Below the pieces are notes generated by a model that saw only the letters and a list, made by a program, of their open reading frames with translations, was not told where the DNA came from and ran no database searches. From positions 17,031 to 81,030 of the forward strand of contig JACPJP010000012.1 in the NCBI GenBank assembly GCA_016187495.1: 64,000 nucleotides of DNA, written 5' to 3'. The stretch is from Candidatus Woesearchaeota archaeon (lineage in GTDB: Archaea; Nanobdellota; Nanobdellia; Woesearchaeales; GW2011-AR4). Below, one piece after another: positions 10,167 through 46,094 of the stretch. Each line of letters starts with the position of its first letter. Within the stretch, counting starts at the first letter, position 1. The position numbers and the translations under genes were made by a program.

Positions 10167-11669
10167 ATGCCAAATGACTATAAAATAGACAAGGAAGCAA
10201 TAAAAACCCAGCATGCTAAGGGCAAGTTAACGGCAAGGGAAAGATTGGAAGTTCTATTGGATAAAGGCTCTTTTACAGAGGTTAATGCAGACATGGAGCT
10301 TACAAGCACTAATTTTGACCTGCAGCAAAAGAAAGTGCCTGGAGATGGCGTCATAACAGGCTACGGAAGGATAAATGGAAAGTCAGTATGCGTATTTGCC
10401 CAGGATTTTATCTTCATGGGCGGCTCTATGGGAGAATCTCATAATAAAAAAATAGTTTCTATACAGGAACATGCATTAAAAATTGGCTGTCCAATAGTAG
10501 GATTATTTGATAGCGGTGGAGCAAGAATCCAGGAAGGCGTTAATTCCCTTGATTCTGGGGGCAGAATATTCAAGAACAACACTTTGGCCTCTGGAGTTAT
10601 ACCTCAAATTTCTGTTATTTTGGGGCCATGTGCTGGTATTGCAGTGTACAGCCCAGCTTTAACTGATTTTATTTTCATGACAAAAAAAATCAGCTATATG
10701 TTCATTACAGGTCCTGACGTGATTAAGACAATAACTGGCGAAAATATTGATTTTGAGGGATTAGGCGGGGCAATGCCCCATAATGAAAAGAGTGGTGTTG
10801 CAAGCTTCATAGAGGAAAGTGAAAAATCATGCTTTGAAACGCTAAAATTATTGCTAAGCTATTTGCCGCAAAACAATATGGAAAATCCTCCTTATATAAA
10901 CACAAATGACCGCCCAAACAGGTTAAACAACCTGAAAAATATTGTCCCTAAGGAAGACAAGAAAACCTATGATGTAAAAAATGTGATAGAGGAAATAGCC
11001 GATAAAAACACCTTCCTTGAAATCCAGCCATTATACGCGCAAAATGCAGTCATAGGATTAGCAAGATTAAATAGCTATACGGTCGGCATAGTGGCAAACC
11101 AGCCAAAAATACTTGCTGGCTGCCTCGACATAAACAGCTCTGATAAGATTGCAAAATTTGTAAGGTTTTGTGATGCCTTCAACATACCAATAATAAACCT
11201 TGTTGATGTTACAGGCTATCTTCCTGGCGTAAACCAAGAGCATAACGGAATAATAAGGCACGGGGCAAAAATACTTTATGCTTACTCTGAAGCTACTGTC
11301 CCAAAAATAAGCCTGGTAATGAGAAAAGCTTACGGTGGAGCTTACATTGCTTTAGCTTCCAAAGAAATGGGCTATGACAAAGTGATTGCATGGCCTTCTT
11401 CAGAGATAGCAGTCATGGGCGCTGAGCAAGCAGTCAATATAATACATAGGAAAGAGCTTGCAGGTAAAAATTCTGAAAGAATAAAGCAGCAAAAAATAAA
11501 TGAATACAAAGAGAAATTCATGAATCCCTATGAGGCAGCGAAACACGGAAAAGTGGATATAATAACAGAGCCGAAAAACACAAGAAAGGCCTTAATCAGT
11601 TGTTTAGAGATGCTATTAAGCAAAAGGGAGAGAAGGCCTGCAAAAAAGCATGGCAATATTCCATTATAA
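10167..11669 (+). CDS. acyl-CoA carboxylase carboxyltransferase subunit (PccB/methylmalonyl-CoA carboxyltransferase family)
   Basis: 500 aa; tandem crotonase-like CT domains with conserved motifs (GGARIQEG..., AYGGAY); adjacent to BCCP and biotin genes. Confidence 0.9.
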   Translation: MPNDYKIDKEAIKTQHAKGKLTARERLEVLLDKGSFTEVNADMELTSTNFDLQQKKVPGDGVITGYGRINGKSVCVFAQDFIFMGGSMGESHNKKIVSIQEHALKIGCPIVGLFDSGGARIQEGVNSLDSGGRIFKNNTLASGVIPQISVILGPCAGIAVYSPALTDFIFMTKKISYMFITGPDVIKTITGENIDFEGLGGAMPHNEKSGVASFIEESEKSCFETLKLLLSYLPQNNMENPPYINTNDRPNRLNNLKNIVPKEDKKTYDVKNVIEEIADKNTFLEIQPLYAQNAVIGLARLNSYTVGIVANQPKILAGCLDINSSDKIAKFVRFCDAFNIPIINLVDVTGYLPGVNQEHNGIIRHGAKILYAYSEATVPKISLVMRKAYGGAYIALASKEMGYDKVIAWPSSEIAVMGAEQAVNIIHRKELAGKNSERIKQQKINEYKEKFMNPYEAAKHGKVDIITEPKNTRKALISCLEMLLSKRERRPAKKHGNIPL

Positions 11670-11697
11670 GTGATAGGCATTACAAGTTTAATGAATA

Positions 11698-11768
11698 GAT
11701 AGGCGAGGCAAAAATTCGATGGCAGAAGAATTTTTGCCGAGCAGTAAAATTTGTCGCGAAGCGACGGA
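11698..11768 (+). ncRNA. conserved structured intergenic element, copy A (candidate small RNA/regulatory repeat)
   Basis: Hairpin ggcaaaaattc/gaatttttgcc (11707-11738), then 'gagcagtaaaatt' and a GCGAAGC mini-hairpin; ~85% identical over ~58 nt to the element at 25681-25738. Confidence 0.4.
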
Positions 11769-11801
11769 ATAAAAATCAACTTACTCAAAATTTTATCACA
11801 A

Positions 11802-12191
11802 ATGGAAGATATAACCATTAAAGTCGATGGCAAAGAATATGATGTCAAGGTTGAGGAAACAGAAGACGGAAAAATACTTGTTCATTGCAACGGGGATGTT
11901 TATGAGGTAGAAAGCCCTTATGACAAGAAGGCTGCTATCTTCAGCCGAGCAAAAAAAGAGGAGATAGAGCAAAAAGGAAAAGCTGCTGTTACCGCTCCAT
12001 TGCCGGGAATAATATATGACATAAAAGTTAAAAAGAGGGATAAGGTAAAAGAAGGCCAGTCTTTAATCAAGCTCATAGCAATGAAGATGGAAAATGACAT
12101 TGTTGCTCCTCGCTCAGGTACAGTAAAGGAGATAAAGGCAAAAAAGAATGCTCAGGTAAACAAGGATGATATTTTGATTGTCATAGAATAA
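11802..12191 (+). CDS. biotin carboxyl carrier protein (biotin/lipoyl attachment domain)
   Basis: 'AMKMEN' biotinylation motif near the C-terminus. The six-frame ORF starts at 11751 with TTG, inside the conserved intergenic element. ATG at 11802 (MEDITIKVDG...) is the more plausible start. Confidence 0.8.
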   Translation: MEDITIKVDGKEYDVKVEETEDGKILVHCNGDVYEVESPYDKKAAIFSRAKKEEIEQKGKAAVTAPLPGIIYDIKVKKRDKVKEGQSLIKLIAMKMENDIVAPRSGTVKEIKAKKNAQVNKDDILIVIE

Positions 12192-12221
12192 ATGTAGCAA
12201 ATATAGAACAAAGGTGGCAAC

Positions 12222-12851
12222 ATGGCAAAAAAAACAACAAGAAAATCCGGGAAAAAAACCATCAAATCAGATAAAAAATCTGAAAGTATTGCTGAAACAA
12301 AAAACATTGAGAAAGCAAATAACTTAAAGCCTTTGGTTTTTGCAGCGTTGTTTGCAGCTTTGACTGCAGCAGTCTCTCCATTAAAGATACCTTTAGGATT
12401 TACACCAGTCCCAATTACATTGCAAACCTTAGTCGTGTTAATGTCAGGCGCAATGCTTGGCCCTATTTATGGAGCTTTAGCCATGATTTTATATGTAGTT
12501 GTCGGAACTTTAGGGCTTCCAGTATTTGCCGGCGGTGGTTCAGGAATAGGAGCAGTTCTAGGCCCAACCGGAGGTTATCTAATAAGCTATTTCATAGCGG
12601 CATTTGCTATAGGAAAAACGTTGCAATTGAGAAAGCGGCCAAAATACCTGGATTATGTAGTCGCAATGATAATAGGCACAATAATAATCTATGTGCTGGG
12701 AGCTGGCTGGGCATTAGTAGTTGTTCCGAACCTTACATTCTTAACAGTTATGGTAGGATGGGTATTACCTTTCATAATAGGCGACACGATAAAGCTGTTG
12801 ATAGCTGCTTATATAGCAAAAACGGCAAATATCAAAAGATACCTGAAATGA
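12222..12851 (+). CDS. bioY: biotin transporter BioY (ECF S component) with Lys-rich N-terminal extension
   Basis: 209 aa; multi-TM with the BioY-type fold, preceded by a ~35-aa K-rich leader. Confidence 0.82.
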   Translation: MAKKTTRKSGKKTIKSDKKSESIAETKNIEKANNLKPLVFAALFAALTAAVSPLKIPLGFTPVPITLQTLVVLMSGAMLGPIYGALAMILYVVVGTLGLPVFAGGGSGIGAVLGPTGGYLISYFIAAFAIGKTLQLRKRPKYLDYVVAMIIGTIIIYVLGAGWALVVVPNLTFLTVMVGWVLPFIIGDTIKLLIAAYIAKTANIKRYLK

Positions 12852-13606
12852 CTGCAAAAGAACTTTTTTTATTTGACATTTTTTCTTATTCTTGCATGAA
12901 TTGCTTGAGATCATTAGATTATATTAAAAAATTAGACAATAAATATAAGAGATATGGGTTAAAAACAGTTTTAATACATCCTTCTGAATGGGATTTTGAG
13001 AAAGACAGCAATAATATAATCAGAGCAGCAAAAAAATATAGGATAAGGATGCCTATACTCCTCGATAAAAACAAAAAAATTATAAAAAACCTGAAAATAA
13101 ATTTCTGGCCGACTCAGATATTAATTAAGAACAAAAAAACTGTATACAAGCACATTGGAGAAGGGGATTACAAAGCATTGGAAAATAGTATAATCGAGGC
13201 ATTAAAAATCAAAACCAAGAAGATATTTAATAAAGAGCCGAAATACACAAAATTCCCAACAGTCTATGCAGGCAAGAGAAAAAAGGATAAGCTCTCAGAA
13301 CTAAAAGGCAAATTAAAGTGTGGTATCATATACAAAAAAGGGGCTTGGAAGCAGAATAACGAGTCCTTAATTGGAAAAGGCTTGTTGGTAATAAAAACGA
13401 AAGGGAAGGTAGTAAGTATGGTGGCAAGCTCAATTAAGAAAAAACCAGTAAAAATCAATATAATGTTAAATAATAAAACCAGTAAGAATATGATTATTAA
13501 TGAGCCTCAGTTATATGATATCATGAGATTAAAAACCGATAAAACAAACATACTAAATTTAAAAACAAAAAGTGCCATATCGATCTACTCTTTTGCATTC
13601 CAATGA
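12848..13606 (+). CDS. thioredoxin-fold (redoxin/TlpA-like) protein with Lys-rich C-terminal tail
   Basis: 'SYSCMNC' CxxC motif in the thioredoxin-fold position. Likely start is ATG at 12848; the long ORF from 12758 would overlap bioY. Translationally coupled to ecfA (ATGA at 13603). Confidence 0.55.
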   Translation: MTAKELFLFDIFSYSCMNCLRSLDYIKKLDNKYKRYGLKTVLIHPSEWDFEKDSNNIIRAAKKYRIRMPILLDKNKKIIKNLKINFWPTQILIKNKKTVYKHIGEGDYKALENSIIEALKIKTKKIFNKEPKYTKFPTVYAGKRKKDKLSELKGKLKCGIIYKKGAWKQNNESLIGKGLLVIKTKGKVVSMVASSIKKKPVKINIMLNNKTSKNMIINEPQLYDIMRLKTDKTNILNLKTKSAISIYSFAFQ

Positions 13607-14301
13607 TACAAATAAAAAACCTTGATTTTAAGTACGAAGATGAGCTTATTCTCAAAAATATAAATCTAGAGCTAAAAGATGGCTGCTATACTGCTATAAT
13701 TGGGGCAAACGGCTCAGGGAAAACAACGCTTGCGAAGCACCTTAATGCATTGCTTATGCCAACAAAAGGGTCTGTAACCATTGATGAGATTGATACGAAA
13801 AAGGACCAGATTAGCGTAAGAAAAAAAGTTGGTTTTGTGTTCCAGAATCCTGAAGATCAGTTGGTATATTCGATTGTCGAGGAGGACATTGCATTTGGGC
13901 TGGAAAATCTTGGGATGAGAACAGAAGAAATGAAGACTAAGGTCAATAGTACAATTAAAGGGTTAGACATCGAATACCTTGCAAAGAAGAATGTAAACAT
14001 ACTCTCTGCTGGGCAGAAACAGCTAACTGCTTTGGCTGGAATCCTTGCAATGAGCCCGAAATACATCGTCTTTGACGAACCAACCACGTTATTGGACAAC
14101 AAAAACAAGAAAAATATAATGGATGTAGTAAACACGTTAAACAAGGAAAATAAAATTGGAATTATATTGGTGACTAATCTCCTAAATGATATAAAATATG
14201 CCAAAAATGTCATTGTAATCTGCAATGGAAGAATAATATTCAACGATAAAAAATCAAAATTGAATAACAAAATACTGAAAAAGGCTGGTTTGGATGCTTA
14301 A
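13603..14301 (+). CDS. ecfA: ECF transporter ATPase component (EcfA-like ABC ATPase)
   Basis: Walker A 'GANGSGKTT', ABC signature 'LSAGQKQ', Walker B 'IVFDEPT'; a single ATPase gene only. Confidence 0.85.
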   Translation: MIQIKNLDFKYEDELILKNINLELKDGCYTAIIGANGSGKTTLAKHLNALLMPTKGSVTIDEIDTKKDQISVRKKVGFVFQNPEDQLVYSIVEEDIAFGLENLGMRTEEMKTKVNSTIKGLDIEYLAKKNVNILSAGQKQLTALAGILAMSPKYIVFDEPTTLLDNKNKKNIMDVVNTLNKENKIGIILVTNLLNDIKYAKNVIVICNGRIIFNDKKSKLNNKILKKAGLDA

Positions 14302-15019
14302 GAAGCTGACTTTTGGGCAATATGCGCACAAAGATTCCATAACGCACAAATTAGACCCAAGAATAAAGATTCTTGCCGTTATTTTGCTGAGCGCAACGGC
14401 ATTTTTACTGGAAACTTACTATAAGTTTGCTATATTCTCATTATTTGTTTTTTTATTAATAATGCTGTCAAAAATAAATTTCTCTTCGTTGATAAGGAAC
14501 TTAAGGCCTTTCTTTTTTATTTTTGCATTTATACTAATGATGTATATTTTGTTCTCTAGAAATGAGCTTGACAAAGGCATACAGGCGATATGGAAATTTG
14601 TTTTGTTAATAATAATAGCCTCGATACTTACATTTACAACTACAATAACTAATTTAGTAACAGGAATAGAAAAGTTATCAGCTCCATTAAAATTAATAAA
14701 AATTAATTCTAGGACAATTGCACTGTTAATAGCTTTGACAATAAGGTTCGTCCCAGCATTATTCCTGTATGCCGAGAGAATAAAAGATGCAAGGCTTGCA
14801 AGATTAGGAAGCTTAAAGAGTCCAAAGCACGTTAAATTATTATTTTTGCCATTGCTTGACAGGATATTCAAAAGCGCATCAACACTAAGCGATGCAATGC
14901 TTGCAAGGAACTACACAGAAAAAAGAATTTCTTATTTCAGTGCCATTGGATTAAAAAATTATGACTATATTTCCTTTACTGTACTGTTGGCGTTTATATT
15001 CTTAGTTCTATTGATGTAG
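14294..15019 (+). CDS. ecfT: ECF transporter transmembrane component (EcfT/CbiQ family)
   Basis: 241 aa, ~5 TM helices; overlaps the ecfA stop; position after BioY and EcfA. Confidence 0.8.
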   Translation: MLKKLTFGQYAHKDSITHKLDPRIKILAVILLSATAFLLETYYKFAIFSLFVFLLIMLSKINFSSLIRNLRPFFFIFAFILMMYILFSRNELDKGIQAIWKFVLLIIIASILTFTTTITNLVTGIEKLSAPLKLIKINSRTIALLIALTIRFVPALFLYAERIKDARLARLGSLKSPKHVKLLFLPLLDRIFKSASTLSDAMLARNYTEKRISYFSAIGLKNYDYISFTVLLAFIFLVLLM

Positions 15020-15066: not shown

Positions 15067-15300
15067 TTACTTACTCCCTGTTGGAGTCTTCTGCCCGAAC
15101 AAAATTCCAGCTAAAACATTCAAAGCCCATGCCTGCCATACATTTATGCTATGAATACTGCCAAACACAAAGTTCCATAAAATCTTTACTGGAAATGCCA
15201 ATATCAAGCCGACAATGCCGCTTATTAATACAACCAAGGCTATAGTATAACCCATCTCTAGCATCCTTTTCAAAAAAGGCACATCATCTAAAAATCCCAT
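15067..15300 (-). CDS. small predicted two-TM membrane protein (77 aa)
   Basis: Two clear hydrophobic helices; it is the more plausible of two mutually exclusive ORFs in this 300-bp gap. Confidence 0.3.
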   Translation of the reverse strand: MGFLDDVPFLKRMLEMGYTIALVVLISGIVGLILAFPVKILWNFVFGSIHSINVWQAWALNVLAGILFGQKTPTGSK

Positions 15301-16032: not shown

Positions 16033-16048
16033 AAAATAATTACAATCC

Positions 16049-16771
16049 CTAAATAACAAATATATCTGCTTCCACTATCTTCTTAATGCTCCCGTCATTT
16101 AATTTCAATATAAGATTGCATTCTTCGTCAACATCAACAGCTTTTCCAGTATAATTCCCGCTAAGCGTCTTTGCTTTTGTCATCTTCCCCAAGGTATGCG
16201 AATATTCTTTCCATATATCAACTATTTTTTTATAATTTTTTTTATTATAATAATCATATAATCTATTGAATTCGTTTATTATTGTTTTTGCTATTTTTTC
16301 TATGTCGTAGTTACTATTGGACTCTATCATTATTGACGTTGAGTTTCTCATAATGGACCTTGGAAATTTCTTCTGATTTACATTTAGCCCTATTCCAACT
16401 AGTGCGTAATTTACATTTGTGCATACATTTTCAGTCAATATTCCACATACTTTTTTATGATTAATTAAGATGTCATTCGGCCATTTTACTTTTGCGTCCA
16501 AACCAGCAATCTTGCGAATAGCTTTTGCAACTGACACTGCAGCAATAAAAGTAAGATACTTTGCTTTATCCAAACCCTTTTCCTTCAAGATTATAGTCAT
16601 ATACAATCCTCCTGGGCTAGAACTCCATTTACGCCCAAATCTTCCCCTACCTTTTTCTTGTTTCTTAGCAACTACAACAAGGTTTGCTTTTCGTTCTTTT
16701 GCAAATTCCCTAGCCTTGTCATTAGTAGAGCTAAGAACATCAAAATTATAAAAAGAAAAGTCAGGTTTCAT
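16049..16771 (-). CDS. birA: biotin--[acetyl-CoA-carboxylase] ligase BirA (no N-terminal HTH)
   Basis: 240 aa; 'GRGRFGRKWSSSPGG' biotin-binding loop motif typical of BirA/BPL catalytic domains. Confidence 0.85.
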   Translation of the reverse strand: MKPDFSFYNFDVLSSTNDKAREFAKERKANLVVVAKKQEKGRGRFGRKWSSSPGGLYMTIILKEKGLDKAKYLTFIAAVSVAKAIRKIAGLDAKVKWPNDILINHKKVCGILTENVCTNVNYALVGIGLNVNQKKFPRSIMRNSTSIMIESNSNYDIEKIAKTIINEFNRLYDYYNKKNYKKIVDIWKEYSHTLGKMTKAKTLSGNYTGKAVDVDEECNLILKLNDGSIKKIVEADIFVI

Positions 16772-18656
16772 TCTCCATTAATTCCTGTCTTCCGGACAGG
16801 ACCCAAGGGTTTGCTTTATTGTTGCCGTTCTTCTTTTCCATGTATTTAGCAACTGCCGTGCTCACTATAATGACTTTCTTTTCGTTCGTAAGCTCTTGTT
16901 TTTTATGCTCGTAATATTTCTTTACCTCATCCAGTATGTTATTCTTTTCTATAAAGTTAGTAGTGACTCTTCCCCTGTAGAAGTTCTTGTTGTGCAAAAC
17001 AGCTAAATGAAAAGGTATTGTGGTTTTTACTCCGCCAATAATGTATTCGTGCAGTGCTCTCATCATCCTCACTATAGCTTCCTGCCTGTTGCTGCCATGG
17101 CATATTAGTAGTGATAATAATGAGTCATAATCTGGCAAGACTTTATAGCCCTGGTGGCATATGCTGTTTATTCTTATTCCAGGCCCTCCTGGCGGCAAGT
17201 AGCTAGTTATTGTTCCTATGGAAGGGGCAAAGTTATTACTTGGGTCTTCTGCATTTATCCTGCATTCAATTGCCCATCCATCCACTTTGATGTCTTCTTG
17301 CTTAAACGCAAGCTTTGCCCCTGATGCCAGATTTATCTGCTCCTTAACCAGGTCAACACCTGTAACCATCTCAGTAACTCCATGCTCTACCTGTATTCTC
17401 GTATTCATTTCAATGAAATAGAAATTCTTGCTCTTGTCCAAAAGAAATTCGACAGTTCCAGCGCCCTCATATTTTGCAGCCGATACAGCTTTTACCGCAG
17501 CTTCCCCCATCTTTTCCCTCAACTCTTCGTTTAAAGCGGGGCTTGGGCTTTCCTCGACAAGCTTCTGGTGCTTCCTCTGTATGCTGCAGTCTCTTTCCCC
17601 AAGATGGACAACATTTTTGTATTGATCCGCTAATATTTGAAACTCTATATGCCTGGGCTCCTCAACATATTTCTCCATAAATAGCCTTTTATCATTAAAA
17701 GACAGAAATGCTTCTGCCTGTGCGCCTTCATATGCCTTTTCCAGTTCATCAATATCCCTTACGATCCTCATTCCCTTACCCCCACCGCCTGCAGCAGCTT
17801 TCAATATAACCGGAAATCCTATCTTTCTCGCAAACTTAAGTGCCTCTTTTCTGTTCTTCAGGGGCTTTGCAGTTCCCTCTAGTATAGGGACACCTGCCTT
17901 TTTTACAGTCTTTTTTGCTTTTATCTTGTCCCCTAAAAGCCCTATTGTCATGGAAGACGGCCCTATGAACTTGATTTTATTTTTCTCGCATAGCTTTGCA
18001 AATTTCGGGTTTTCCGCAAGAAATCCGTAACCGGGATGTATTCCATCAGCTTTTATCTTTTTTGCAATATTAATGATTTTCTTGATATCAAGGTAGCTTG
18101 CGCTAGGACCTATACAATAAGCCTTGTTGGCAAACTTAACTGCAAGCGTATCCTTATCCTGCCTTGAATAAACCAGGGCAGTTTCTATGCCTAACTCACG
18201 GCATGCTCTAATTACCCTTAAAGCTATTTCCCCCCTATTGGCTATCAAAACCTTGTTAAGCTTCTTTTCTTTTGATAGGACAGTATATTCTTTCTCATTA
18301 AAACTGCCTAACCCTTTTGCGAGCATGCCAATAAAAGATTGTGAGGATCTTGCCTTCACTATTTTCCTTAGCTCAGTTTCATGAATGCTCGGTATTTTCT
18401 TCATAAGATTGAAGGTTATCACATCTCCAAGCTTTGCTAAATTGTCTTTCTTAAAACCTCTTTTTTCAATCTGTATAACATTGCTCTTAATCAACCTGTC
18501 TATTTCCCCATAAACCAGCGGAGCTGCTTTTTTCATCTCGTTAAATGCCTTCTTTAAGGCTTTGTATGAATATTCCGCTGGAATTAAGCCTTTGTTTAGT
18601 ACCGAGACTATGCCATTCTTAATCCTTTTTGAGATGCTGTTTTTTCTCTTTCCCAT
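16761..18656 (-). CDS. biotin carboxylase (AccC/PccA-type ATP-grasp) with ~125-aa N-terminal extension of unknown function
   Basis: The core from 'KVLIANRGEIALRVIRACRELGIE' onward is canonical biotin carboxylase (ATP-grasp, BC C-terminal domain). The upstream 125 aa (Lys-rich, no match) may be real or due to a late internal start at Met 18326. Confidence 0.85.
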   Translation of the reverse strand: MGKRKNSISKRIKNGIVSVLNKGLIPAEYSYKALKKAFNEMKKAAPLVYGEIDRLIKSNVIQIEKRGFKKDNLAKLGDVITFNLMKKIPSIHETELRKIVKARSSQSFIGMLAKGLGSFNEKEYTVLSKEKKLNKVLIANRGEIALRVIRACRELGIETALVYSRQDKDTLAVKFANKAYCIGPSASYLDIKKIINIAKKIKADGIHPGYGFLAENPKFAKLCEKNKIKFIGPSSMTIGLLGDKIKAKKTVKKAGVPILEGTAKPLKNRKEALKFARKIGFPVILKAAAGGGGKGMRIVRDIDELEKAYEGAQAEAFLSFNDKRLFMEKYVEEPRHIEFQILADQYKNVVHLGERDCSIQRKHQKLVEESPSPALNEELREKMGEAAVKAVSAAKYEGAGTVEFLLDKSKNFYFIEMNTRIQVEHGVTEMVTGVDLVKEQINLASGAKLAFKQEDIKVDGWAIECRINAEDPSNNFAPSIGTITSYLPPGGPGIRINSICHQGYKVLPDYDSLLSLLICHGSNRQEAIVRMMRALHEYIIGGVKTTIPFHLAVLHNKNFYRGRVTTNFIEKNNILDEVKKYYEHKKQELTNEKKVIIVSTAVAKYMEKKNGNNKANPWVLSGRQELMENET

Positions 18657-18731
18657 AACTCTAATGTATTGATTTTCGGTTTATAAAAGTTACTGAAATC
18701 CTAAAAACCCGCACTAACTTAGCAGCACAAA

Positions 18732-18748
18732 AAAGAAAGGTATATAAA
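18732..18748 (+). promoter_or_regulatory. putative archaeal BRE/TATA promoter
   Basis: 'aaagaaagg' + 'tatataaa' ~47 nt upstream of the ATG at 18795. Confidence 0.35.
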
Positions 18749-19589: not shown

Positions 19590-19673
19590 TTTACTTCCAT
19601 ATATTTTCTCAACTGAAAATTCCCATTTACCTTCTAACGAAAGTTTTTTAAAAGCCCAGACATTAGTTTAGAC

Positions 19674-20168
19674 ATGGATTTGATAGACCAATTTAAGGAC
19701 CCCAATGGAGAAATAAGCAGGGAAAACATCAAGCAGATAATACCTTATGACGATGATTTTTTGTTTATTGATCGGGTTTTAAAGCTGGATAAAAAAAATA
19801 TCGTTGCTGTAAAAGAAGTCAAGGCTGATGAGCCGTATTTTAAGGGACATTTCAAGGGTTTCCCAATAATGCCAGGAGCCTTAATAGTAGAGGGCTTGGG
19901 CCAGGCAGCTACATTGCTTGTGAGGTACAACATACATAACCATGAAGAAAAAGATATACTTGCGTATAAGATAAGGGGCGCTAAATTTTTCAGGCCCACT
20001 TTCCCAGGCCAGACCTTGAGGTTTGAAGCCAGACTTTTTTTCATGTTCAAAAAAATAGCATTTGTAAATGGCAGTGTTTTCAGAAATGACAAGCTCACTG
20101 CAAAGGTAAATATGGTCTTGGCCATAGTTGATAAAAAATCGTTTAGGGAAAAGTACACAAAAAAATAA
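19674..20168 (+). CDS. FabZ-like beta-hydroxyacyl dehydratase (hotdog fold)
   Basis: 'FLFIDRV' and 'HFKGFPIMPGALIVEGLGQAA' match the FabZ/FabA catalytic His and hotdog motifs. Confidence 0.78.
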   Translation: MDLIDQFKDPNGEISRENIKQIIPYDDDFLFIDRVLKLDKKNIVAVKEVKADEPYFKGHFKGFPIMPGALIVEGLGQAATLLVRYNIHNHEEKDILAYKIRGAKFFRPTFPGQTLRFEARLFFMFKKIAFVNGSVFRNDKLTAKVNMVLAIVDKKSFREKYTKK

Positions 20169-20180
20169 TGGAGAGGAAGA

Positions 20181-21238
20181 ATGTACATCAAAGGCGCTGG
20201 AATGACGAAGTTCGGGATACGTGCAGAAACAACACATGAGCTGTGTTATGAGGCTATTATGGAAGCTCTGGAAGATGCAGATATGCCCTTATCAGAAATA
20301 GATGAAATAATAATCTCAAAAGGGGGTTCAAGAAATGATGGGGAGAGGCAAAAGCTCTTTCCGGGTATGTTGAGCAGCATGCTCCAGGACCAGGATATAC
20401 CTATCATAAGGGTCATGGCTGCTTGCAGCGGGGGAGGAGCGGCAATATGGGATGCGGTGAATTCCAAAGATGGAAATATCCTTGTAGTTGGTGTTGATAA
20501 GCTCTCAACTGAGCCAACCAGCCTCATGACGGACGATTTGATGATGGCTTCAGAAAGGATTCACGAGCAGACGGAAGGCCTAAACTTTCCGGCCCAGAAC
20601 GCGCTCATTGCGCAGCAATATATGCTCAAGTATGGGGTATCAACTGATGACCTCGCATTAGTCGCACTAAAAAACCATGAGAATGCCTTCCTTAACCCCA
20701 AAGCAAGATTTTATGGAAAGAAAGTTACATTGGATATGATACCGCCATATTAAGCAATGAAAAAAGCGACATAGAGATAATAGGCTCCTCATTATACACT
20801 GACAGGCTCTCAGTATTTGAATCAAAAGATATGACGTCATGGGCAGCCACAAGACTGGCAGCTCAGTCCGCTTACCAGCAAGCTGGAATAACCCAGAAAG
20901 ATATTGATTTTGTTGAGCTGCATGATGCTTTTACGTCCGTTGAATTGATGGCTTACGAGGATCTGGGTTTCGCTGAAAGAGGGGAAGGCAAGAAGCTGAT
21001 AAAGAAAGGCATAACAAAAATGAATGGAAAACTCCCGGTAAACGCCTCAGGAGGATTAAAAGCAAAGGGGCATCCCATCAGTGCTACAGGGGTGAGCCAG
21101 ATATATGAGATAGTGAGGCAAATGAGAAAGCAAGCTGGCAAAAGGCAACTTGATAATATTGGAATAGGCTTAGCCCACAATGTAGGGGGAGTAGGCAGCA
21201 CTGTTACGGTACATATAATAAAGCATGTTGGTGGTTAA
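20181..21238 (+). pseudogene. thiolase (acetyl-CoA C-acetyltransferase family) paralog 1, interrupted by an out-of-frame ~67-nt deletion
   Basis: The N-terminal part (20181-20753, active-site 'AACSGGG') ends 'LDMIPPY*'. The C-terminal part continues in another frame (…TAILSNEKSDIEIIG…, ORF 20831-21238). About 22 codons present in paralog 2 (RKSPVVASPLRLFDCSIPCNGA) are missing. The break lies exactly at the end of the 141-bp tract shared with paralog 2. Confidence 0.6.
20601..20741 (+). repeat. 141-bp perfect direct repeat, copy 1 (inside thiolase paralog 1)
   Basis: Identical to 23144-23284 by direct comparison, whereas flanking coding sequence of the two paralogs diverges at synonymous sites. 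Confidence 0.85.
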
Positions 21239-21240
21239 TA

Positions 21241-22692
21241 ATGATAATAAGATGGGTTTGTGAAAAAGACAACAAAAAATGGATGTATCCCATCCAAAAA
21301 TGCATTTACTGCAAAGGACCCGTAAAGAAACAGGTAAGCAGAAAAGCAAGAGTTATAGGTATAACGAAAGTAAACATACCTTCCCCAATGCATCCGATTA
21401 TACCCTACAATGTTATTCTGCTTGAGGACGAGCATGGCAACAAGATGCCAAAAAAGACTATGAAGGACTATAAGATAGGGGATGAATACAAAATTGAAAA
21501 GGCGAAATCTGACAGTGGCGTTATTGCAACAAAAATAAAGTATGACTTGTACGAGGCTTTAAAATCATCCTTGGAGTTACTAAACTCTTTTGATGTAATG
21601 GAAAATGATAAAGTGCTGATAAAGCCGAGCATAATAGAGCCAGCTTACAGCTATTCAGCAGTAAATACTAACCCAAAAATACTTGATGCCCTAATAACTT
21701 TCCTGAAAGAAAAGAATGTAAATGATATAATTGTAGCTGAGCAGGCAATGGTTGGCAATGATACCTTAGACTCTGCAAAAAAATCTGGAATGTTAGAAGT
21801 ATGTGAAAAGCATAATGTGGGTTTCGTTGACCTTAAAAAGGCAGAGTATGCAGAAAAAGAAGCTGAAGGGTTTAAATTTGAGGTTGCCAAATATTTCTTC
21901 GAAAGAAAAGTTATAAATATTCCTGTTATGAAAACCAACTCCCAGATTGGTATTTCTGGAGCAGTTGAAAATATGGTAAGATGCGCGCATAAGGATACGC
22001 AAAAAAATATGTTTAAGCACGATATAGAAAAGACCTTGCCCAAGCTGATTAAAACCCTGCCTCATTTCATAACCATAGGGGATGCTACAATAGGCATGCA
22101 TGGCCAAGGCCCGACCTCTCTGGGAGAGCCTGCATTTTTGAATATGCTTTTTGCGAGCAAGGATCCTGTTGCTTTAGATGCAGTTTTCGTGGAAATGGGA
22201 ATGATGGAGATGCCTCAATACCTAAAAGAATGCGGTTCTTTAGGATTAGGGAACTGCGACTCAAAAACAATCGAAGTAGTAGGAGACGAATTGGAGGCTA
22301 TAAAGTTCTCTCTCAAGCCTGCTAAAAAAAATGAAAGCGCGCACCCAAAAATAAAGCTTATCGATGGTAAAGCAGATCCTTATATTTTTAATTCGGCAAT
22401 AAAATCAACAGCTAAGCTTATTGGATTATCAGGACAGGAGATTAACCTTGCCATAGGCTCGCAACTGACAAAAGATATGATAGCAGATAAAAACCGCTTG
22501 GTTGCATATGGAAATGATGCGATTGAAAAAATAAAATCGTTAGGAATAACTCCAATTGCAGAAATACCTGAAGGTATAGACGATCTTGAAAAGATTATAT
22601 TGCTAAAAAGTATCCTGGAGAACCCTGAAAAGGAAGGCATTACTATTGCAGATAAAATAAAATCAAAATTTTTAAGTTGGGTGCAAAAATAA
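21241..22692 (+). CDS. fusion protein: N-terminal DUF35-like Zn-ribbon/OB-fold domain (thiolase/HMGCS scaffold family) + large C-terminal domain of uncertain family (possibly DUF362-like)
   Basis: N-terminus 'CEKDNKKWMYPIQKCIYCKG' is a rubredoxin-like ribbon followed by an OB-like segment as in archaeal DUF35 proteins. The remaining ~380 aa are conserved-looking but unassigned. The gene sits between two thiolase paralogs. Confidence 0.65.
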   Translation: MIIRWVCEKDNKKWMYPIQKCIYCKGPVKKQVSRKARVIGITKVNIPSPMHPIIPYNVILLEDEHGNKMPKKTMKDYKIGDEYKIEKAKSDSGVIATKIKYDLYEALKSSLELLNSFDVMENDKVLIKPSIIEPAYSYSAVNTNPKILDALITFLKEKNVNDIIVAEQAMVGNDTLDSAKKSGMLEVCEKHNVGFVDLKKAEYAEKEAEGFKFEVAKYFFERKVINIPVMKTNSQIGISGAVENMVRCAHKDTQKNMFKHDIEKTLPKLIKTLPHFITIGDATIGMHGQGPTSLGEPAFLNMLFASKDPVALDAVFVEMGMMEMPQYLKECGSLGLGNCDSKTIEVVGDELEAIKFSLKPAKKNESAHPKIKLIDGKADPYIFNSAIKSTAKLIGLSGQEINLAIGSQLTKDMIADKNRLVAYGNDAIEKIKSLGITPIAEIPEGIDDLEKIILLKSILENPEKEGITIADKIKSKFLSWVQK

Positions 22693-23143
22693 AAAAATAG
22701 ATTCTAAGATGGCCATTTACATAAAAGGTGCAGGAATGACGAAATTTGATGTTGACCAGAGAAATTCTTACGAGCGCATATATGAATGTGTAAACGAGGC
22801 TCTTGATTCAGGGAATGTGAGTATGAAAGATATAGAGGCCGTTTTCGTCTCAAACTGCGAGCCTGAAACCAATGGCGAAAGGCAAAGGCATACTGGCCCA
22901 ATGATAAGCAGCATGTTCCAGAAAAAAATGCCCATAATAACAGTCCCTGCCGGATGCGGTGGTGGAGGAACAGCATTATGGAATGCTGCAGAATTCCAAA
23001 AAAAAAATAATATGAAAAACATACTTGTTATTGGGTTTGAGAAACTTGTTGCAAATTTATCAGAAAACATAACTGATGAGATGTTCATGGGCGGTGAGCG
23101 TATTTATGAGCAAGCAGAAGGTGTCATTTTTCCTGCCCAAAAT

Positions 23144-23284
23144 GCGCTCATTGCGCAGCAATATATGCTCAAGTATGGGGTATCAACTGATGACCTCGCA
23201 TTAGTCGCACTAAAAAACCATGAGAATGCCTTCCTTAACCCCAAAGCAAGATTTTATGGAAAGAAAGTTACATTGGATATGATA
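23144..23284 (+). repeat. 141-bp perfect direct repeat, copy 2 (inside thiolase paralog 2)
   Basis: Identical to 20601-20741. Confidence 0.85.
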
Positions 23285-23298
23285 ATTGGATATGATAA
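23273..23298 (+). repeat. 13-bp tandem duplication (ttggatatgataa x2) that frameshifts thiolase paralog 2
   Basis: Read directly from the sequence; the first unit is the last 13 nt of the 141-bp shared tract. Confidence 0.85.
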
Positions 23299-24127
23299 GA
23301 AAATCTCCTGTAGTTGCTTCTCCGTTAAGGCTGTTTGACTGTAGCATACCATGCAACGGCGCGGCTGCTGTTATAATAGGCAGGGGCAAAACGGAGGTTG
23401 AGCTTGCTGGCTCTGGGTTAAGCACGAGCAAGTTGGCGAGCTTTGAAAGGGAAGACATGACCTCTTGGGACTCAACAATAAATGCTGCAAAAATAGCATA
23501 CAAAGAAGCAAATATAACTCCAAATGATATAGACATAGCAGAGGTTCATGACGCATTTACCCCTGTTGAGCTTATTTCTTATGAAGATTTGGGATTCTGC
23601 AAAAAAGGCGAGGGTCCTTACCTTATCAGGCAAGGGGCAACAAAAATTAATGGCAAGCTTCCTGTAAATACCTCTGGAGGATTGAAAGCAAAGGGTCATC
23701 CTATCAGCGCTACCGGAGTAAGCCAGATATATGAGCTTTTTCTGCAGCTGACAGGAAATGCAAAAGGCAGGCAGGTGGATAATGCCAATTATGGCTTGGC
23801 GCACAATACTGGTGGCGCAGGCAGCATGACCAGCGTGCATATACTAAAGAAAGCTATGTGATGGTTAGAGTATGTCTAAAAATCGCTTCGCGGGTTAGCC
23901 CACGATAATTGGAATGATGTTCTTGTTTGACATTTTCATTGTTTGACTGACCATAAAAACCAACCTTACGATGCTCGTCCATTTTGACTTTCATTTGTTT
24001 ATTTAATCATATTTCCTTTTTCATTAAAAATTCATATGGATAAAACCCTATTATTATTAATTTTTATTGAATAAATACTATGTTGCAATTAATGCTAACC
24101 TTTGTTTTTTAGACACGCCCGTGATGG

Positions 24128-25531
24128 CTATTTTGGATTCAATATATGTATAGCCTTTCCCATTGTCGCTTCCGCAGCTTCCATTAAGCTTTCGCTCAAT
24201 GTAGGATGAGGGTGTATTGTCAAAGCTAAATCATCCAAAGTAGCATTCATCTTTATTGCCAAAGCTGCTTCGCTTATAAGATCAGAAGCTTCGCTTCCGA
24301 CAATTTGAACACCAAGAAGTTTATTGCTTTTTTCGTCTGCAATTACCTTGACAAATCCGTCTGTCGCATTTCTTGTCATTGCCCTGCTTGACGCCCTAAA
24401 AGGGAACTTTCCAGTTTTTATCTTAATCCCATTATCTTTAGCTTCTTTCTCATCCATTCCGACTGTAGCAATCTCTAGATCTGTAAATATTACTGCAGGC
24501 ACGACAATATTTTCATATGCGCCTTTATTTCCTGCTATTGCCTCTGCAACAAATTTTCCTTGGCTTGAAGCCTTGTGCGCTAGCATTGGTCCTGTAGAAA
24601 CGTCCCCAATAGCATAAATATTCCCATCAGTTGTCCTCAAAGTTTGGTCTACTTTTATAAACCCCTTATCATTTAACTTTACTTTTGTATTTTCAAGCCC
24701 TATACTATTTGTCGCTGGGATTCTTCCAACAGCTACAAGCAAGGTATCGGCATTAATTGCCAGATTGCCTTTGTCTTTTGATTCTATTGTTACTTTTCCA
24801 TTCTCAAACTTGCTGGCTTTTGAATTGAGGAATATATTAATACCTAGCTTATCCAAATTTTTTTGCAGCACATTAACTATTTCATTATCAAAACCAGGAA
24901 GAATCTGGCTTTCCATCTCTATAACATTGACTTTGCTTCCGAGTTTTGCATACACAATGCCCAATTCCATGCCTATATAACCTCCACCTATAACTGCAAG
25001 ATTTTTTGGAATTTGGTTAAGGTATAATGCTTCTGTTGAACTTATTATCCTCTTTCCATCAAACTTAAATCCTGGCAATTCAACAGGCTTTGAGCCGACT
25101 GCAATTATTGCCTTTTCGAATTCAATATGATTAATATTCTTGCCATCTGCAACTTTTAATTTATTCGAGCCTTCAAAATATGCTTCTCCCCTAACAACCC
25201 TTATTTTGTTCTGTTTGCATAATAATTCAATGCCGTTATTTAACTTGGATATTATCCCATCCTTCCACTCTTGCATTTTATTGAAGTTCATTGTAACCTT
25301 GCCAACACTAATGCCCATATTTTCTGATTTTTTTATCTTGTCAAGAAATTCAGCTGCGTAGATCATTGCCTTTGATGGAATGCATCCGTAATTAAGGCAT
25401 ATCCCACCTAATTTATCCTTGTCAACTAAAACTACATTTTTCCCGAGCTGCGCCAGCCTTATTGCTGCTACATAGCCTCCTGGCCCTGCGCCTATTACAG
25501 CTACTTCCGTGCTTAATATGTTCGAATCCAT
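24128..25531 (-). CDS. lpdA: dihydrolipoyl dehydrogenase (E3, pyridine nucleotide-disulfide oxidoreductase)
   Basis: FAD motif 'VIGAGPGGY', redox-active 'CLNYGCIPSK' disulfide, NAD motif and C-terminal dimerisation His-Pro; likely start 'MDSNILSTEVAVIGAGPGG' at 25531. The six-frame ORF extends to 25594. Confidence 0.9.
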   Translation of the reverse strand: MDSNILSTEVAVIGAGPGGYVAAIRLAQLGKNVVLVDKDKLGGICLNYGCIPSKAMIYAAEFLDKIKKSENMGISVGKVTMNFNKMQEWKDGIISKLNNGIELLCKQNKIRVVRGEAYFEGSNKLKVADGKNINHIEFEKAIIAVGSKPVELPGFKFDGKRIISSTEALYLNQIPKNLAVIGGGYIGMELGIVYAKLGSKVNVIEMESQILPGFDNEIVNVLQKNLDKLGINIFLNSKASKFENGKVTIESKDKGNLAINADTLLVAVGRIPATNSIGLENTKVKLNDKGFIKVDQTLRTTDGNIYAIGDVSTGPMLAHKASSQGKFVAEAIAGNKGAYENIVVPAVIFTDLEIATVGMDEKEAKDNGIKIKTGKFPFRASSRAMTRNATDGFVKVIADEKSNKLLGVQIVGSEASDLISEAALAIKMNATLDDLALTIHPHPTLSESLMEAAEATMGKAIHILNPK

Positions 25532-25628
25532 GATATATAGATGAGGTATACCATTAATAAATCTAACGCTTATTTGCAATAATTCTAGCTTCATGAATTG
25601 AAACCATTTGATTTTATTATTATGCTCC

Positions 25629-25760
25629 CGGCAATTTTACTGCTCGCTTAATAATCATAATAAAACTATTGTTATGATTAGGCGAGGCAAAATTTATTGG
25701 CAGGAAAAATTTTGCCGAGCAGTAAAATTCGGCTGAGCGTAGCGAAGCCAAATTGAAATT
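25629..25760 (+). ncRNA. conserved structured intergenic element, copy B (nested hairpins)
   Basis: Outer 14-bp stem aattttactgctcg (25633-25646) / cgagcagtaaaatt (25716-25729) encloses an inner hairpin ggcaaaattt/aaaattttgcc (25687-25715). The core 25681-25738 is ~85% identical to 11701-11752. Confidence 0.4.
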
Positions 25761-25873
25761 TAATAAAAAATCAATTTCAAAAGGCAGAATAAATTTAATT
25801 AATTTCCCCTTACTAAATAGCCCTTTAAAAAGACAAGATTTAAAAAGTTCTTGCTCATTCTTGATAGTGTAAA

Positions 25874-26851
25874 ATGTCTATTGCGGTGATTATAAAAGAG
25901 CCAGAATCGTGGAAGCCTGACAGGCCTGCCTCTAGCGGTGCGATTGCATTTCATAATGCGGTTATTAACGCTTCTTGGCTGCATGATTGTGTAGATAAGT
26001 TGACAGAATTTGCTGCTCCGAGAATCAAGGAAAATGACATCGTAGTTGATTTCGGGGCAGGAACTGGAACGTCTTCTGCCAGGATACTAAAAAGATTTGA
26101 TAACAGGATAAGGTTGTGGCTTGTAGACAATTCTCCAGCATGGCTCGGTAAAGCTTACGAGTACTTACATTCTAGGCAAAATGTAAAATTCTTTGTCTTG
26201 GAAAAGAAAAATGATCATTACTCGACTTTATCTGAAACCGTTGGCAAAGAGTCCGTTAACCAAGTATTATCTGCCAATACCATCCATTTGATTCCAAACC
26301 TCAAGGAAACTTTTAGGGGTATTTTTGATTCCTTAAAGCCGAATGGCTCTTTTATTTTCAACAGTGGGAATATTGAGAGAGAAGGTAAGCCGAAAGGTGC
26401 TTTGATGCTGGATTCCACTGTTTATAGAGTACATGACATTGCAATAGACTTAATAAAAAAAATGCCAAAATTCAAAGAATATAGGGAAGGCCTTGACAAG
26501 CGGATAAAAGAATTTTTGCCCCAAAGAAAATTTATTTTTCCTTACCCTAAGGACATTAAAGATTATTTAGGGGCTGTTAAGGATGCTGGATTCCGGCAAA
26601 TAAAGGAATATTATTCATGCTTCAGAGTAAAATATTCTGATTATCTTGACTTTTTGAAGGTAAAAAGGTTGCAGGCAGGAATGCTGCCAGAAGTAGGCGG
26701 TTTAGAGCCAAATAAGAAGGAAATTCAGGATAGGGATGAATTAATAACCCTAGCTTCGTTGCAGCTTTTTGACGAGCTTAGGAAAAATAATCCCTTGGCA
26801 GACGATAAAGCCTGGCAATGTGAATGGGCATATATTGCTGGAGTTAAATAA
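25874..26851 (+). CDS. class I SAM-dependent methyltransferase family protein
   Basis: 'IVVDFGAGTGTSS' glycine-rich SAM-binding motif I followed by an acidic motif II (LWLVDNS). Confidence 0.55.
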   Translation: MSIAVIIKEPESWKPDRPASSGAIAFHNAVINASWLHDCVDKLTEFAAPRIKENDIVVDFGAGTGTSSARILKRFDNRIRLWLVDNSPAWLGKAYEYLHSRQNVKFFVLEKKNDHYSTLSETVGKESVNQVLSANTIHLIPNLKETFRGIFDSLKPNGSFIFNSGNIEREGKPKGALMLDSTVYRVHDIAIDLIKKMPKFKEYREGLDKRIKEFLPQRKFIFPYPKDIKDYLGAVKDAGFRQIKEYYSCFRVKYSDYLDFLKVKRLQAGMLPEVGGLEPNKKEIQDRDELITLASLQLFDELRKNNPLADDKAWQCEWAYIAGVK

Positions 26852-26852
26852 T

Positions 26853-27587
26853 ATGCTGAAGGGAAAAGTAGCGTTAGTTACCGGAGCTTCTAGAGGCATT
26901 GGAAGCTCCATAGCTTTTGAGATGGCAAAGGAGGGTGCAGATATTATTGTTAATTATGCCAGCAGCAGCAAAAATGCCGAAGAAGTGGTCGATAAAATAA
27001 AAAAAATGGGGAATAAGGCTATATCTATAAAAGCCGATGTTTCTAATTATAATGAAGTGGCTAAAATGTTTGAACTCGTTAAATCAGAATTTAAAAAAAT
27101 TGACATACTGGTAAATAATGCAGGCATTGTCAGGGACAGGACATTAAGGAATATGTCGCAGGAAGAATGGAACAATGTCCTAAATACCAATTTAAGCAGT
27201 GTATTTAATGTTACCAAGCAAGCCCTCCAGTTAATGGGAGACGGTGGCAGGATAATTAACATATCCTCTATTGTAGGGCAGTATGGCAATTTTGGCCAGA
27301 CCAACTACGCGGCTGCAAAGGCAGGAATAATAGGGCTTACTAAATCACTAGCAAAAGAGCTTGGCAAGAGGAAGATAACGGTAAATGCTATTGCTCCTGG
27401 ATTCATAAAAACGGATATAATAAAAGATATGCCTTTTTTCAAAAGGAAGATTATCAGGTATATGATACCATTGAAGGAAGAAGGCAATCCAGAGGATGTG
27501 GCAAATGCTGTTGTTTTCCTTGCATCAGAAAAATCACGCTATATCACTGGTTCTGTAATTAATGTTGATGGCGGCTTAGCTTTTTGA
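26853..27587 (+). CDS. FabG-like short-chain dehydrogenase/reductase (3-oxoacyl reductase family)
   Basis: 'GKVALVTGASRGIGSSIA' TGxxxGxG, 'NNAG', catalytic 'YAAAKAG' YxxxK; classical SDR of ~245 aa from the ATG at 26853. The long ORF from 26769 overlaps the upstream gene. Confidence 0.85.
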   Translation: MLKGKVALVTGASRGIGSSIAFEMAKEGADIIVNYASSSKNAEEVVDKIKKMGNKAISIKADVSNYNEVAKMFELVKSEFKKIDILVNNAGIVRDRTLRNMSQEEWNNVLNTNLSSVFNVTKQALQLMGDGGRIINISSIVGQYGNFGQTNYAAAKAGIIGLTKSLAKELGKRKITVNAIAPGFIKTDIIKDMPFFKRKIIRYMIPLKEEGNPEDVANAVVFLASEKSRYITGSVINVDGGLAF

Positions 27588-46093: not shown

Positions 46094-46094
46094 A

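Follow-up and report, generated by a model that had tools for sequence, protein, structure and literature searches.

A conserved thiolase, carboxylase and FabZ/FabG gene cluster in Woesearchaeota: a candidate CoA-based route to fatty-acyl chains

It is a common assumption that DPANN archaea cannot make membrane lipids of their own, and archaeal fatty-acid synthesis (FAS) is only just beginning to be resolved. Here, we analyzed a 64,000-nt stretch of DNA (the window) from Candidatus Woesearchaeota archaeon (JACPJP010000012.1, positions 17,031–81,030) and found that it carries a gene cluster (core positions 10167–27587) that is conserved across Woesearchaeota; the cluster encodes a biotin-dependent acyl-CoA carboxylase with biotin uptake, a FabZ-type dehydratase, two thiolase paralogs (THL1 and THL2) on either side of a three-domain protein, D362, and a FabG-type ketoreductase of the short-chain dehydrogenase/reductase (SDR) family (Table 1). 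We propose, with a probability of roughly 60%, that this cluster would make fatty-acyl chains as coenzyme A (CoA) thioesters, without a ketoacyl synthase (KAS) or a cluster-encoded acyl carrier protein (ACP). An earlier note on this DNA had suggested an ACP-independent fatty-acid-type pathway, a suggestion that gains support from conserved synteny, gene fusions, linkage to PlsC and GpsA, FabK-like reductases in a bacterial version of the cluster, and the existence of a separate HMGCS operon in some relatives. The gene functions given below are inferred from genomics throughout.

The cluster is conserved across Woesearchaeota

Gene identities were assigned from Pfam and NCBIfam profile scores relative to the model cutoffs, together with PDB sequence matches. 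A scan for the D362 family in one genome per GTDB species returned 71 loci: 61 from Woesearchaeota that encode D362, three from Candidate Phyla Radiation (CPR) bacteria, and seven with a partial or short N-terminal match only, which mostly adjoins a thiolase. Synteny was analyzed by tblastn/blastp with the window proteins and by unbiased clustering of all open reading frames (ORFs) in the loci; the presence ratios below were counted only among loci with enough flank for the gene in question.

Synteny is kept across the 61 Woesearchaeota species-level loci at 40–80% amino-acid identity. The common order begins with genes for a RadA-like protein, the carboxyltransferase (CT), and the biotin carboxyl carrier protein (BCCP), all pointing right, then (BioY, redoxin, EcfA, EcfT) and a small membrane protein pointing left. 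The middle part consists of (a rightward 4HBT thioesterase,) BirA and biotin carboxylase (BC), both leftward, and, divergent from them, the rightward run FabZ, thiolase, D362, (SDR,) thiolase. To the right follow (a leftward dihydrolipoyl-dehydrogenase-like [DLD] gene or a rightward family III CoA-transferase gene), a methyltransferase (MTase) and the SDR, both rightward, and then (TRAM, LigT, uS2) GpsA and two PlsC genes. FabZ is present in all 47 of the 47 loci that could be scored and the SDR in 34 of 36; BC (38/46), BirA (34/43), CT (26/39), PlsC-type acyltransferases (25/30), and GpsA (23/31) are likewise widespread. Spacing is operon-like, with 1–16 nt between FabZ, THL1, D362, and THL2 and between the MTase and SDR genes. 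The co-localization of carboxylase, biotin, and thiolase/FabZ/FabG genes is thus highly non-random; the earlier note had called it coherent from the window alone, and its recurrence in 61 Woesearchaeota loci and a CPR bacterium bears this out.

The window is collinear with its relatives from 15350 to 27589. In the closest of these, whose THL2 is 92% identical, the order runs DLD, MTase, SDR, TRAM, LigT, uS2, alpha/beta-hydrolase, GpsA, and two PlsC genes; in one clade, PlsC, PlsC, and GpsA stand directly after the SDR gene on the same strand.

The thiolase breaks are assembly errors

The earlier note had placed two thiolases around a DUF35-domain protein. This order holds, but neither thiolase is an intact ORF in the window, and the middle protein is a three-domain fusion rather than a plain DUF35 protein. 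THL1 is split into ORFs 20181–20753 and 20831–21238, and THL2 into ORFs 22709–23338 and 23286–23861, each pair in different frames. Logan assemblies of runs SRR12113390 to SRR12113429 hold contigs near-identical to the window, and two contigs supply 70 nt that the window copy of THL1 lacks after 20741: L005 runs from the FabZ gene through THL1 and over the break, and L001 is 100% identical to window positions 20742–22765 and also carries the upstream sequence missing from the window. In THL2, the 13-mer ATTGGATATGATA stands in tandem duplicate at 23285–23297; a look-up via the neighboring gene returned only 1.7-kb contigs, which end short of the duplication, and THL2 homologs of exactly 379 aa at 91–92% identity exist. 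Moreover, three ENA contigs from close relatives (L080–L082) carry intact 375-aa and 379-aa thiolase genes and align with the window save for a 72-nt gap at 20741/20744.

The two breaks coincide in position within a tract of identical DNA that the paralogs share (20601–20741 = 23144–23284; 141 nt, extending to 191 nt once repaired). Close relatives show only 83% identity between their paralogs over this tract, and its complete identity in the window population therefore points to recent gene conversion or repeat collapse. Real pseudogenes and programmed frameshifts were considered and rejected, since independent contigs restore both frames and the breaks share one point of the tract. The breaks are assembly errors, and the genes are intact in nature.

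The repaired thiolases are 60% identical to each other, and both are predicted to be catalytically intact. Across 98 thiolase sequences, the nucleophilic Cys is present in all and both His and the Asn in nearly all, the exceptions being gaps in a few truncated ORFs and two Asn substitutions. Copies that precede D362 and copies that follow it fall into separate subclades. The best PDB matches of THL1 are 7yvy (1e-66) and 6esq (1e-52), and source databases annotate the thiolase homologs as acetyl-CoA C-acetyltransferase.

D362 is a three-domain protein between the thiolases

D362 comprises a DUF35-like Zn-ribbon/OB domain (residues 1 to ~100), a LarA-like DUF362 domain (~120–330), and a flavodoxin-like C-terminal domain (~370–483). 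Pfam DUF35 gave no match even at E ≤ 10. Alignment of the N-terminus with the canonical DUF35 proteins of related loci by hhalign was weak (E 0.03) but brought both the CxxC...CxxC ribbon and the PY motif into line. The predicted structure suggests that the N-terminus has a DUF35 fold, an assignment that holds at the level of the fold only; the ribbon cysteines are lost in some lineages. The C-terminal domain varies as well: one Woesearchaeota clade carries CPAC...GDC cysteines (residues ~375–425), reminiscent of the Fe-S-binding motifs in NuoB and in the small subunits of hydrogenases; these cysteines are gone from the window lineage, and the whole domain is missing in a further clade.

The fold of the middle domain matches the LarA/DUF2088 nickel-pincer-nucleotide racemases (Pfam clan CL0471, which includes DUF362) at 12–14% identity. 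Residues 120–330 contain no His that is invariant among 30 homologs, which would argue against a LarA-type nickel-pincer site, and no Lar cofactor genes were seen. The family has more than 300 members of ~488 aa, and every organism-named match is from Woesearchaeota or Nanoarchaeota. In one locus (L056:9950–12181) D362 and SDR are fused into a protein of 743 aa. D362 was also considered as the missing enoyl reductase; this candidate was downgraded because the CPR cluster has FabK-like reductases alongside D362.

Reductase, dehydratase, and methyltransferase

The FabZ-type dehydratase and FabG-type ketoreductase named in the earlier note are confirmed by PF07977, TIGR01830, and their catalytic motifs. 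The dehydratase scores 101 bits with the FabZ equivalog model, below the cutoff of 113, and keeps the catalytic His (GHF) and Glu (IVEGLGQ). The SDR, which passes its model (Table 1), carries the motifs TGASRGIG, NNAG, and YAAAK. Many lineages encode a second SDR; it is ~60% identical to the FabG-type SDR and was rejected as a FabI/FabL-type enzyme, as it has the classical YxxxK rather than the Y-x6-K of FabI.

The MTase appears to be coupled to the FabG-type SDR. The two are fused in L017, L018, L020, L024, L039, L042, L045, and L068, in ORFs of about 563–619 aa (mostly ~570), one of which carries the NCBI annotation FabG. The predicted MTase structure (predicted local distance difference test score 94.8) resembles many small-molecule methyltransferases, with the longest overlaps to OxaG, TmtA, a mycobacterial fatty-acid O-methyltransferase, and SABATH carboxyl methyltransferases. 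BioC of the pimelate/biotin route was tried as an identity for the MTase and rejected (32 bits vs. a cutoff of 185; biotin uptake genes are present).

A complete acyl-CoA carboxylase with biotin uptake

Judged by its genes, the acyl-CoA carboxylase is complete: BC, BCCP with its biotinylation motif, a PccB-type CT, and the cognate ligase are all present. Pfam and NCBIfam place the three carboxylase genes where the earlier note had put them, and its BirA, BioY, and EcfA/EcfT assignments were recovered as well. CT scores 759 bits with the TIGR01117 subfamily model, and its best PDB matches are the PccB structures 1vrg and 1xnw (E 1e-186 to 1e-175). The Ile in its GGAYIAL motif occupies what we take to be the position of PccB D422, a specificity determinant, and would presumably fit the acceptance of acetyl-CoA. 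BCCP is also among the gene calls of L002. BC has an N-terminal extension of ~130 aa (18267–18656, minus strand) that gave no match in a Pfam search; its length is kept across ~40 Woesearchaeota loci, and the family has a median length of 636 aa. BioY, EcfA, and EcfT lie in one co-directional run and form an energy-coupling factor (ECF) biotin transporter of the BioMNY type with a single A subunit. Biotin auxotrophy, which the earlier note had read from these genes, is at most a possibility on the strength of 64 kb. The redoxin-like gene between BioY and EcfA occupies the same position in nine loci; it may take part in biotin uptake, perhaps in the salvage of biotin sulfoxide.

The divergent intergenic region between BC and FabZ includes ~940 nt (18694–19632) that are absent from close relatives. 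An ORF of 266 aa in this region (18789–19589) has only a weak CARDB match and no family match.

Variants of the cluster

The most informative variant comes from a CPR locus (L069, 8092–21020), in a metagenome-assembled genome (MAG) labeled Saccharibacteria. Alongside a thiolase and a short form of D362, it encodes a FabG-type SDR, a true CMAS-family methyltransferase, a fusion of FabZ with a nitronate monooxygenase (NMO)/FabK-like protein, a second FabK-like protein, two PlsC proteins, BC, BCCP, BirA, and CT. This version would amount to a full elongation cycle that includes an enoyl reductase and has neither KAS nor ACP, and it suggests that DPANN archaea and CPR bacteria share the thiolase/D362 pathway.

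Six loci (L025, L035, L047, L049, L063, and L066) carry a canonical HMGCS-thiolase-DUF35 operon (PF01796, PF12172) immediately downstream of the cluster, for example at L066:13311–15916. This sets the thiolase/D362 system apart from the mevalonate entry complex and shows that some Woesearchaeota possess the archaeal mevalonate entry module as well. CoA-dependent accessory enzymes recur among the variants, namely the 4HBT thioesterase, the family III CoA-transferase, and a crotonase-family protein, the last added in four loci. In the clade L051–L055, where D362 is short, the cluster also takes in a three-subunit 2-oxoacid:ferredoxin oxidoreductase, a plausible source of acetyl-CoA; its genes lie between the short D362 and the second thiolase (L051:11317–13648 and the equivalent positions in L053–L055).

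A proposed elongation cycle and the points against it

On the reading that we favor, biotin imported by BioY-EcfAT would be attached by BirA to BCCP, and BC and the PccB-type CT would make malonyl-CoA, possibly methylmalonyl-CoA. The two archaeal-type thiolases would perform the Claisen condensation, held together by the DUF35-like N-terminal domain of D362. Such a docking role has precedents in the Methanothermococcus thermolithotrophicus thiolase/HMGCS complex and the Sulfolobus FAS complex, and ChsH2 (6ok1) is a precedent for a DUF35 module fused to another enzyme. Malonyl-CoA would be the extender or would otherwise pull the condensation; this is the weakest step, and the strict linkage to the carboxylase is what suggests it. 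The FabG-type SDR would then reduce the 3-ketoacyl-CoA, the FabZ-type hotdog protein would dehydrate the product, and the cycle would close with an enoyl reductase whose gene lies elsewhere, the CPR version having a FabK-like one. The SDR-coupled MTase may modify an intermediate or the product, and in relatives the two PlsC-type acyltransferases and GpsA would turn acyl-CoA into glycerol-3-phosphate ester lipids.

Several observations weigh against this scheme. We know of no thiolase that uses malonyl-CoA. For the Sulfolobus ketothiolase, its use has been excluded experimentally (bioRxiv 10.1101/2024.07.05.601840). An enoyl reductase of any known family was not found among the ORFs of the 64-kb window, in keeping with the earlier note, which had reported it missing; MDR/ADH_zinc gave no match among the window ORFs scanned, a FabI probe matched FabG-type SDRs only, and the Woesearchaeota loci lack a FabK-like gene within ±10 kb, the FabK-like NMO proteins being confined to L069. 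PlsC and GpsA are absent from the window, where collinearity ends at 27589 and a glycan island begins; searches of the window for thioesterase, CoA-transferase, FabK, and crotonase genes were also negative. The FabG protein passes an ACP-reductase equivalog and FabZ resembles ACP dehydratases, and an AcpS and a carrier protein are encoded at 43.7–46.1 kb, so that the pathway may yet depend on ACP; the genome can make a holo-carrier protein, though the context is one of sugar acylation. Finally, the DUF35 assignment comes from predicted structure, with weak profile-profile support, and the functional assignments are drawn from genomics rather than biochemistry.

A bolder version of this proposal goes further: THL1/THL2 and D362 would form a new condensing machine that uses malonyl-CoA (a decarboxylating thiolase), with DUF362 supplying enoyl reduction or holding CoA non-covalently in place of ACP, and Woesearchaeota and some CPR bacteria would thus make bacterial-type ester lipids de novo, free of KAS and ACP. 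We offer this version tentatively and regard it as doubtful.

Alternative explanations

The best-surviving alternative is that FabG and FabZ act on acyl-ACP, with the carrier and a phosphopantetheinyl transferase (PPTase) encoded elsewhere, and that the thiolases supply only a primer such as acetoacetyl-CoA. Besides the ACP-type resemblances noted above (the dehydratase scores close to its cutoff), the AcpS and the PP-binding protein of the window speak for it, but these two belong to a sugar-modification cassette in the glycan island and are absent from relatives at this position. Phmmer searches with E. coli ACP, FabH, and FabF found no KAS in the window or the 71 related loci and no ACP in the cluster or those loci: the strong matches of the FabH probe were the HMGCS-like genes of the six loci, and the weaker ones (E ~1e-5) were the thiolases themselves. 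FabD is likewise missing among the window ORFs scanned, and the accessory genes of the variants encode CoA enzymes. We rate an ACP-dependent pathway as unlikely.

We also rate as quite unlikely that the cluster serves short-chain CoA metabolism, making 3-hydroxybutyryl- or crotonyl-CoA for fermentation, redox balance, or a storage polymer, with the carboxylase linked via biotin or acetyl-CoA supply only. The SDR reaches 268 bits with an acetoacetyl-CoA reductase model, the cluster has no enoyl reductase, Woesearchaeota are predicted fermenters, and the 2-oxoacid:ferredoxin oxidoreductase inserted in one clade would suit such a role. It leaves unexplained, however, the two PlsC genes and GpsA directly downstream (in one clade in the same operon), the FabK-like reductases and CMAS of the CPR version, the two thiolase paralogs, and the strict carboxylase linkage; moreover, neither PHA synthase nor Bcd/Etf was seen.

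A specialized polyketide-like or methyl-branched lipid pathway, in which the MTase would act as a polyketide synthase (PKS) C-methyltransferase (C-MT) or methylmalonyl-CoA would be the extender, seems very unlikely to us. The MTase-SDR fusion does resemble the domain order of a PKS, the best PDB sequence match of the MTase, albeit weak (E 9e-4), is the DisA PKS C-MT, CT is of the propionyl/acyl-CoA carboxylase type, and FabZ also matches ApeI/ApeP-like models.

Mevalonate entry, with thiolase/DUF35 making acetoacetyl-CoA, or degradative beta-oxidation can be set aside as hardly credible: the thiolases do have their nearest counterparts among archaeal acetoacetyl-CoA thiolases, that of the HMGCS complex included, and are annotated accordingly, but the window has no HMGCS, the separate HMGCS-thiolase-DUF35 operon beside the cluster in six loci largely refutes the first idea, Woesearchaeota are reported to use the methylerythritol phosphate (MEP) route (PMC10936187; PMC8204110), and for the second there is no acyl-CoA dehydrogenase/ETF or (S)-specific hydratase/dehydrogenase, FabG and FabZ being of biosynthetic types.

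Comparison with known systems

The closest described system is the ACP-independent FAS of Sulfolobus acidocaldarius, which combines a ketothiolase/DUF35 complex, an SDR ketoacyl-CoA reductase, a MaoC dehydratase, and an MDR enoyl-CoA reductase (Schmerling et al., bioRxiv 10.1101/2024.07.05.601840). The Woesearchaeal cluster shares with it a thiolase-type condensing enzyme with a DUF35-fold module, an SDR ketoreductase, a hotdog dehydratase, the absence of KAS, and, as the genes imply, CoA rather than ACP chemistry. It differs in several respects: the dehydratase is FabZ-type (PF07977) rather than MaoC-type, the SDR is a bona fide FabG-type enzyme, the DUF35 module has diverged and is fused to LarA-like DUF362 and flavodoxin-like domains, two thiolase paralogs flank D362, and the window has no MDR enoyl reductase. 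The Woesearchaeal cluster is also linked to PlsC/GpsA and an SDR-coupled methyltransferase and, strictly, to an acyl-CoA carboxylase, BirA, and biotin uptake, whereas malonyl-CoA has been excluded in Sulfolobus; the carboxylase linkage hints at a departure from the non-decarboxylative acetyl-CoA condensation of Sulfolobus. Neither DPANN nor DUF362 nor a link to a carboxylase comes up in the 2024 Sulfolobus paper (bioRxiv 10.1101/2024.07.05.601840).

Bacterial type II FAS (AccABCD, FabD, FabH/F, FabG, FabZ, FabI/K, AcpP) resembles the cluster in FabG, FabZ, and the biotin carboxylase system, in the PlsC/GpsA of relatives, and in the FabK-like reductases of the CPR version. Unlike it, the Woesearchaeal cluster has no AcpP, FabD, or KAS, condensation is assigned to archaeal-type thiolases, and the carboxyltransferase is a single-chain PccB type rather than AccA/AccD. 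The acetoacetyl-CoA thiolase/HMGCS/DUF35 complex (PDB 6ESQ/6ET9) differs in that here there is no HMGCS partner and the DUF35 module is fused to other domains. In ChsH2(DUF35)-Ltp2, BbsAB, and PhlABC, DUF35 modules also dock thiolase-like enzymes and are sometimes fused to another enzyme; D362 differs from these in its fusion partner (LarA-like DUF362), pathway, and organisms.

Most likely, then, the cluster is a variant of archaeal ACP-independent FAS with an unexplained component, D362, and an unprecedented implied coupling to malonyl-CoA. FabG, FabI, FabZ, and a bacterial glycerol-3-phosphate dehydrogenase have been noted in Woesearchaeota MAGs (PMC10936187; PMC8204110), and other authors continue to assume that Woesearchaeota cannot produce the building blocks of lipids (PMC11868695). 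Our literature search, incomplete in its coverage, found no description of the thiolase-D362-thiolase/carboxylase/PlsC architecture. The combination of archaeal-type thiolase/DUF35 condensation, bacterial FabG, FabZ, PlsC, and GpsA, and a dedicated carboxylase offers a concrete, testable route to ester lipids de novo. It bears on the "lipid divide", on how far ultra-small cells depend on hosts, and on how thiolases and ketoacyl synthases are related in evolution, and it gives the uncharacterized DUF362 family a defined pathway context.

Other features of the window

Table 1. Position and identification of the genes discussed, in window coordinates.
Feature	Position	Strand	Evidence or remark
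Acyl-CoA carboxylase carboxyltransferase, CT (PccB/AccD5/MmdA type)	10167..11669	+	PF01039 Carboxyl_trans, 625 bits
BCCP, 129 aa	11802..12191	+	PF00364 Biotin_lipoyl; AMKM biotinylation motif
BioY, biotin-specific S component of ECF transporter	12222..12851	+	PF02632, 134 bits
Thioredoxin/redoxin-like protein within transporter operon	12848..13606	+	PF17991, PF08534
EcfA-type ABC ATPase	13603..14301	+	PF00005
EcfT/CbiQ transmembrane component	14294..15019	+	PF02361
Small membrane protein (~72 aa) beside BirA	15085..15300	-	tblastn 62% identity to family in 32 related loci
BirA biotin-protein ligase, catalytic type without helix-turn-helix	16049..16771	-	TIGR00121, 194 bits vs. cutoff 83
Biotin carboxylase, BC	16761..18656	-	passes TIGR00514 accC, 656 vs. 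626; passes NF006367
FabZ-type 3-hydroxyacyl dehydratase (hotdog)	19674..20168	+	PF07977
Thiolase paralog 1, THL1 (archaeal/SCP2 type)	20181..21238	+	375 aa after repair
D362, 483 aa	21241..22692	+	DUF35-like Zn-ribbon/OB, LarA-like DUF362, flavodoxin-like
Thiolase paralog 2, THL2	22709..23861	+	379 aa after repair
Dihydrolipoyl-dehydrogenase-like (DLD) flavoprotein	24128..25594	-	TIGR01350, 559 bits vs. cutoff 409
Class I S-adenosylmethionine methyltransferase, MTase, family-specific	25874..26851	+	ends 1 nt before SDR
FabG-type 3-ketoacyl reductase (SDR)	26853..27587	+	passes TIGR01830, 303.7 vs. 297.75 bits
AcpS-type PPTase	43692-44066		glycan island
PP-binding carrier protein, 74 aa	45869-46093		glycan island; WDS motif
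MaoC hotdog	46095-46523		glycan cassette; only MaoC gene in window

The GC content is ~36% and uniform along the window, tRNA and Rfam scans of the window gave no match, and several window proteins have their closest named homologs in Candidatus Woesearchaeota/Nanoarchaeota MAGs, which places the window itself in a MAG of a Woesearchaeota (DPANN) member. The earlier note had passed over the redoxin-like, small membrane, LOG-like, DLD-like, and MTase genes of the block. The small membrane protein had no match in a Pfam search. The DLD-like gene occupies its position in the window's clade only (nine loci), with the family III CoA-transferase gene there in other clades. Upstream of the cluster (~770–3183), the gene calls of L002 indicate a ribbon-helix-helix (RHH)/PIN toxin-antitoxin pair and a GTP-dependent PEP carboxykinase.

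At exactly the point where relatives carry TRAM-LigT-uS2-hydrolase-GpsA-PlsC-PlsC, the window turns into an island of surface-glycan biosynthesis genes more than 36 kb long (27590–64000), the product of either a strain-specific event (insertion or rearrangement) or a mis-join. A cassette within it (43692–47418), whose AcpS and carrier genes lie 16–18 kb downstream of the fatty-acid cluster, encodes an AcpS-type PPTase, an FkbH-like protein, the 74-aa carrier, the MaoC hotdog protein, and an aminoglycoside-3-N-acetyltransferase-like protein. Its probable function is sugar acylation that depends on the carrier protein, which would be unusual for a DPANN archaeon. The island also encodes a flippase, PMT_2, GT2/GT1 transferases, three UDP-sugar dehydrogenases, two DegT aminotransferases, a formyltransferase, C-methyltransferases, and a sulfatase-like protein, and at its end (62256–63161) lies a gene with a lysyl-phosphatidylglycerol synthase TM-region domain (PF03706, 143 bits).

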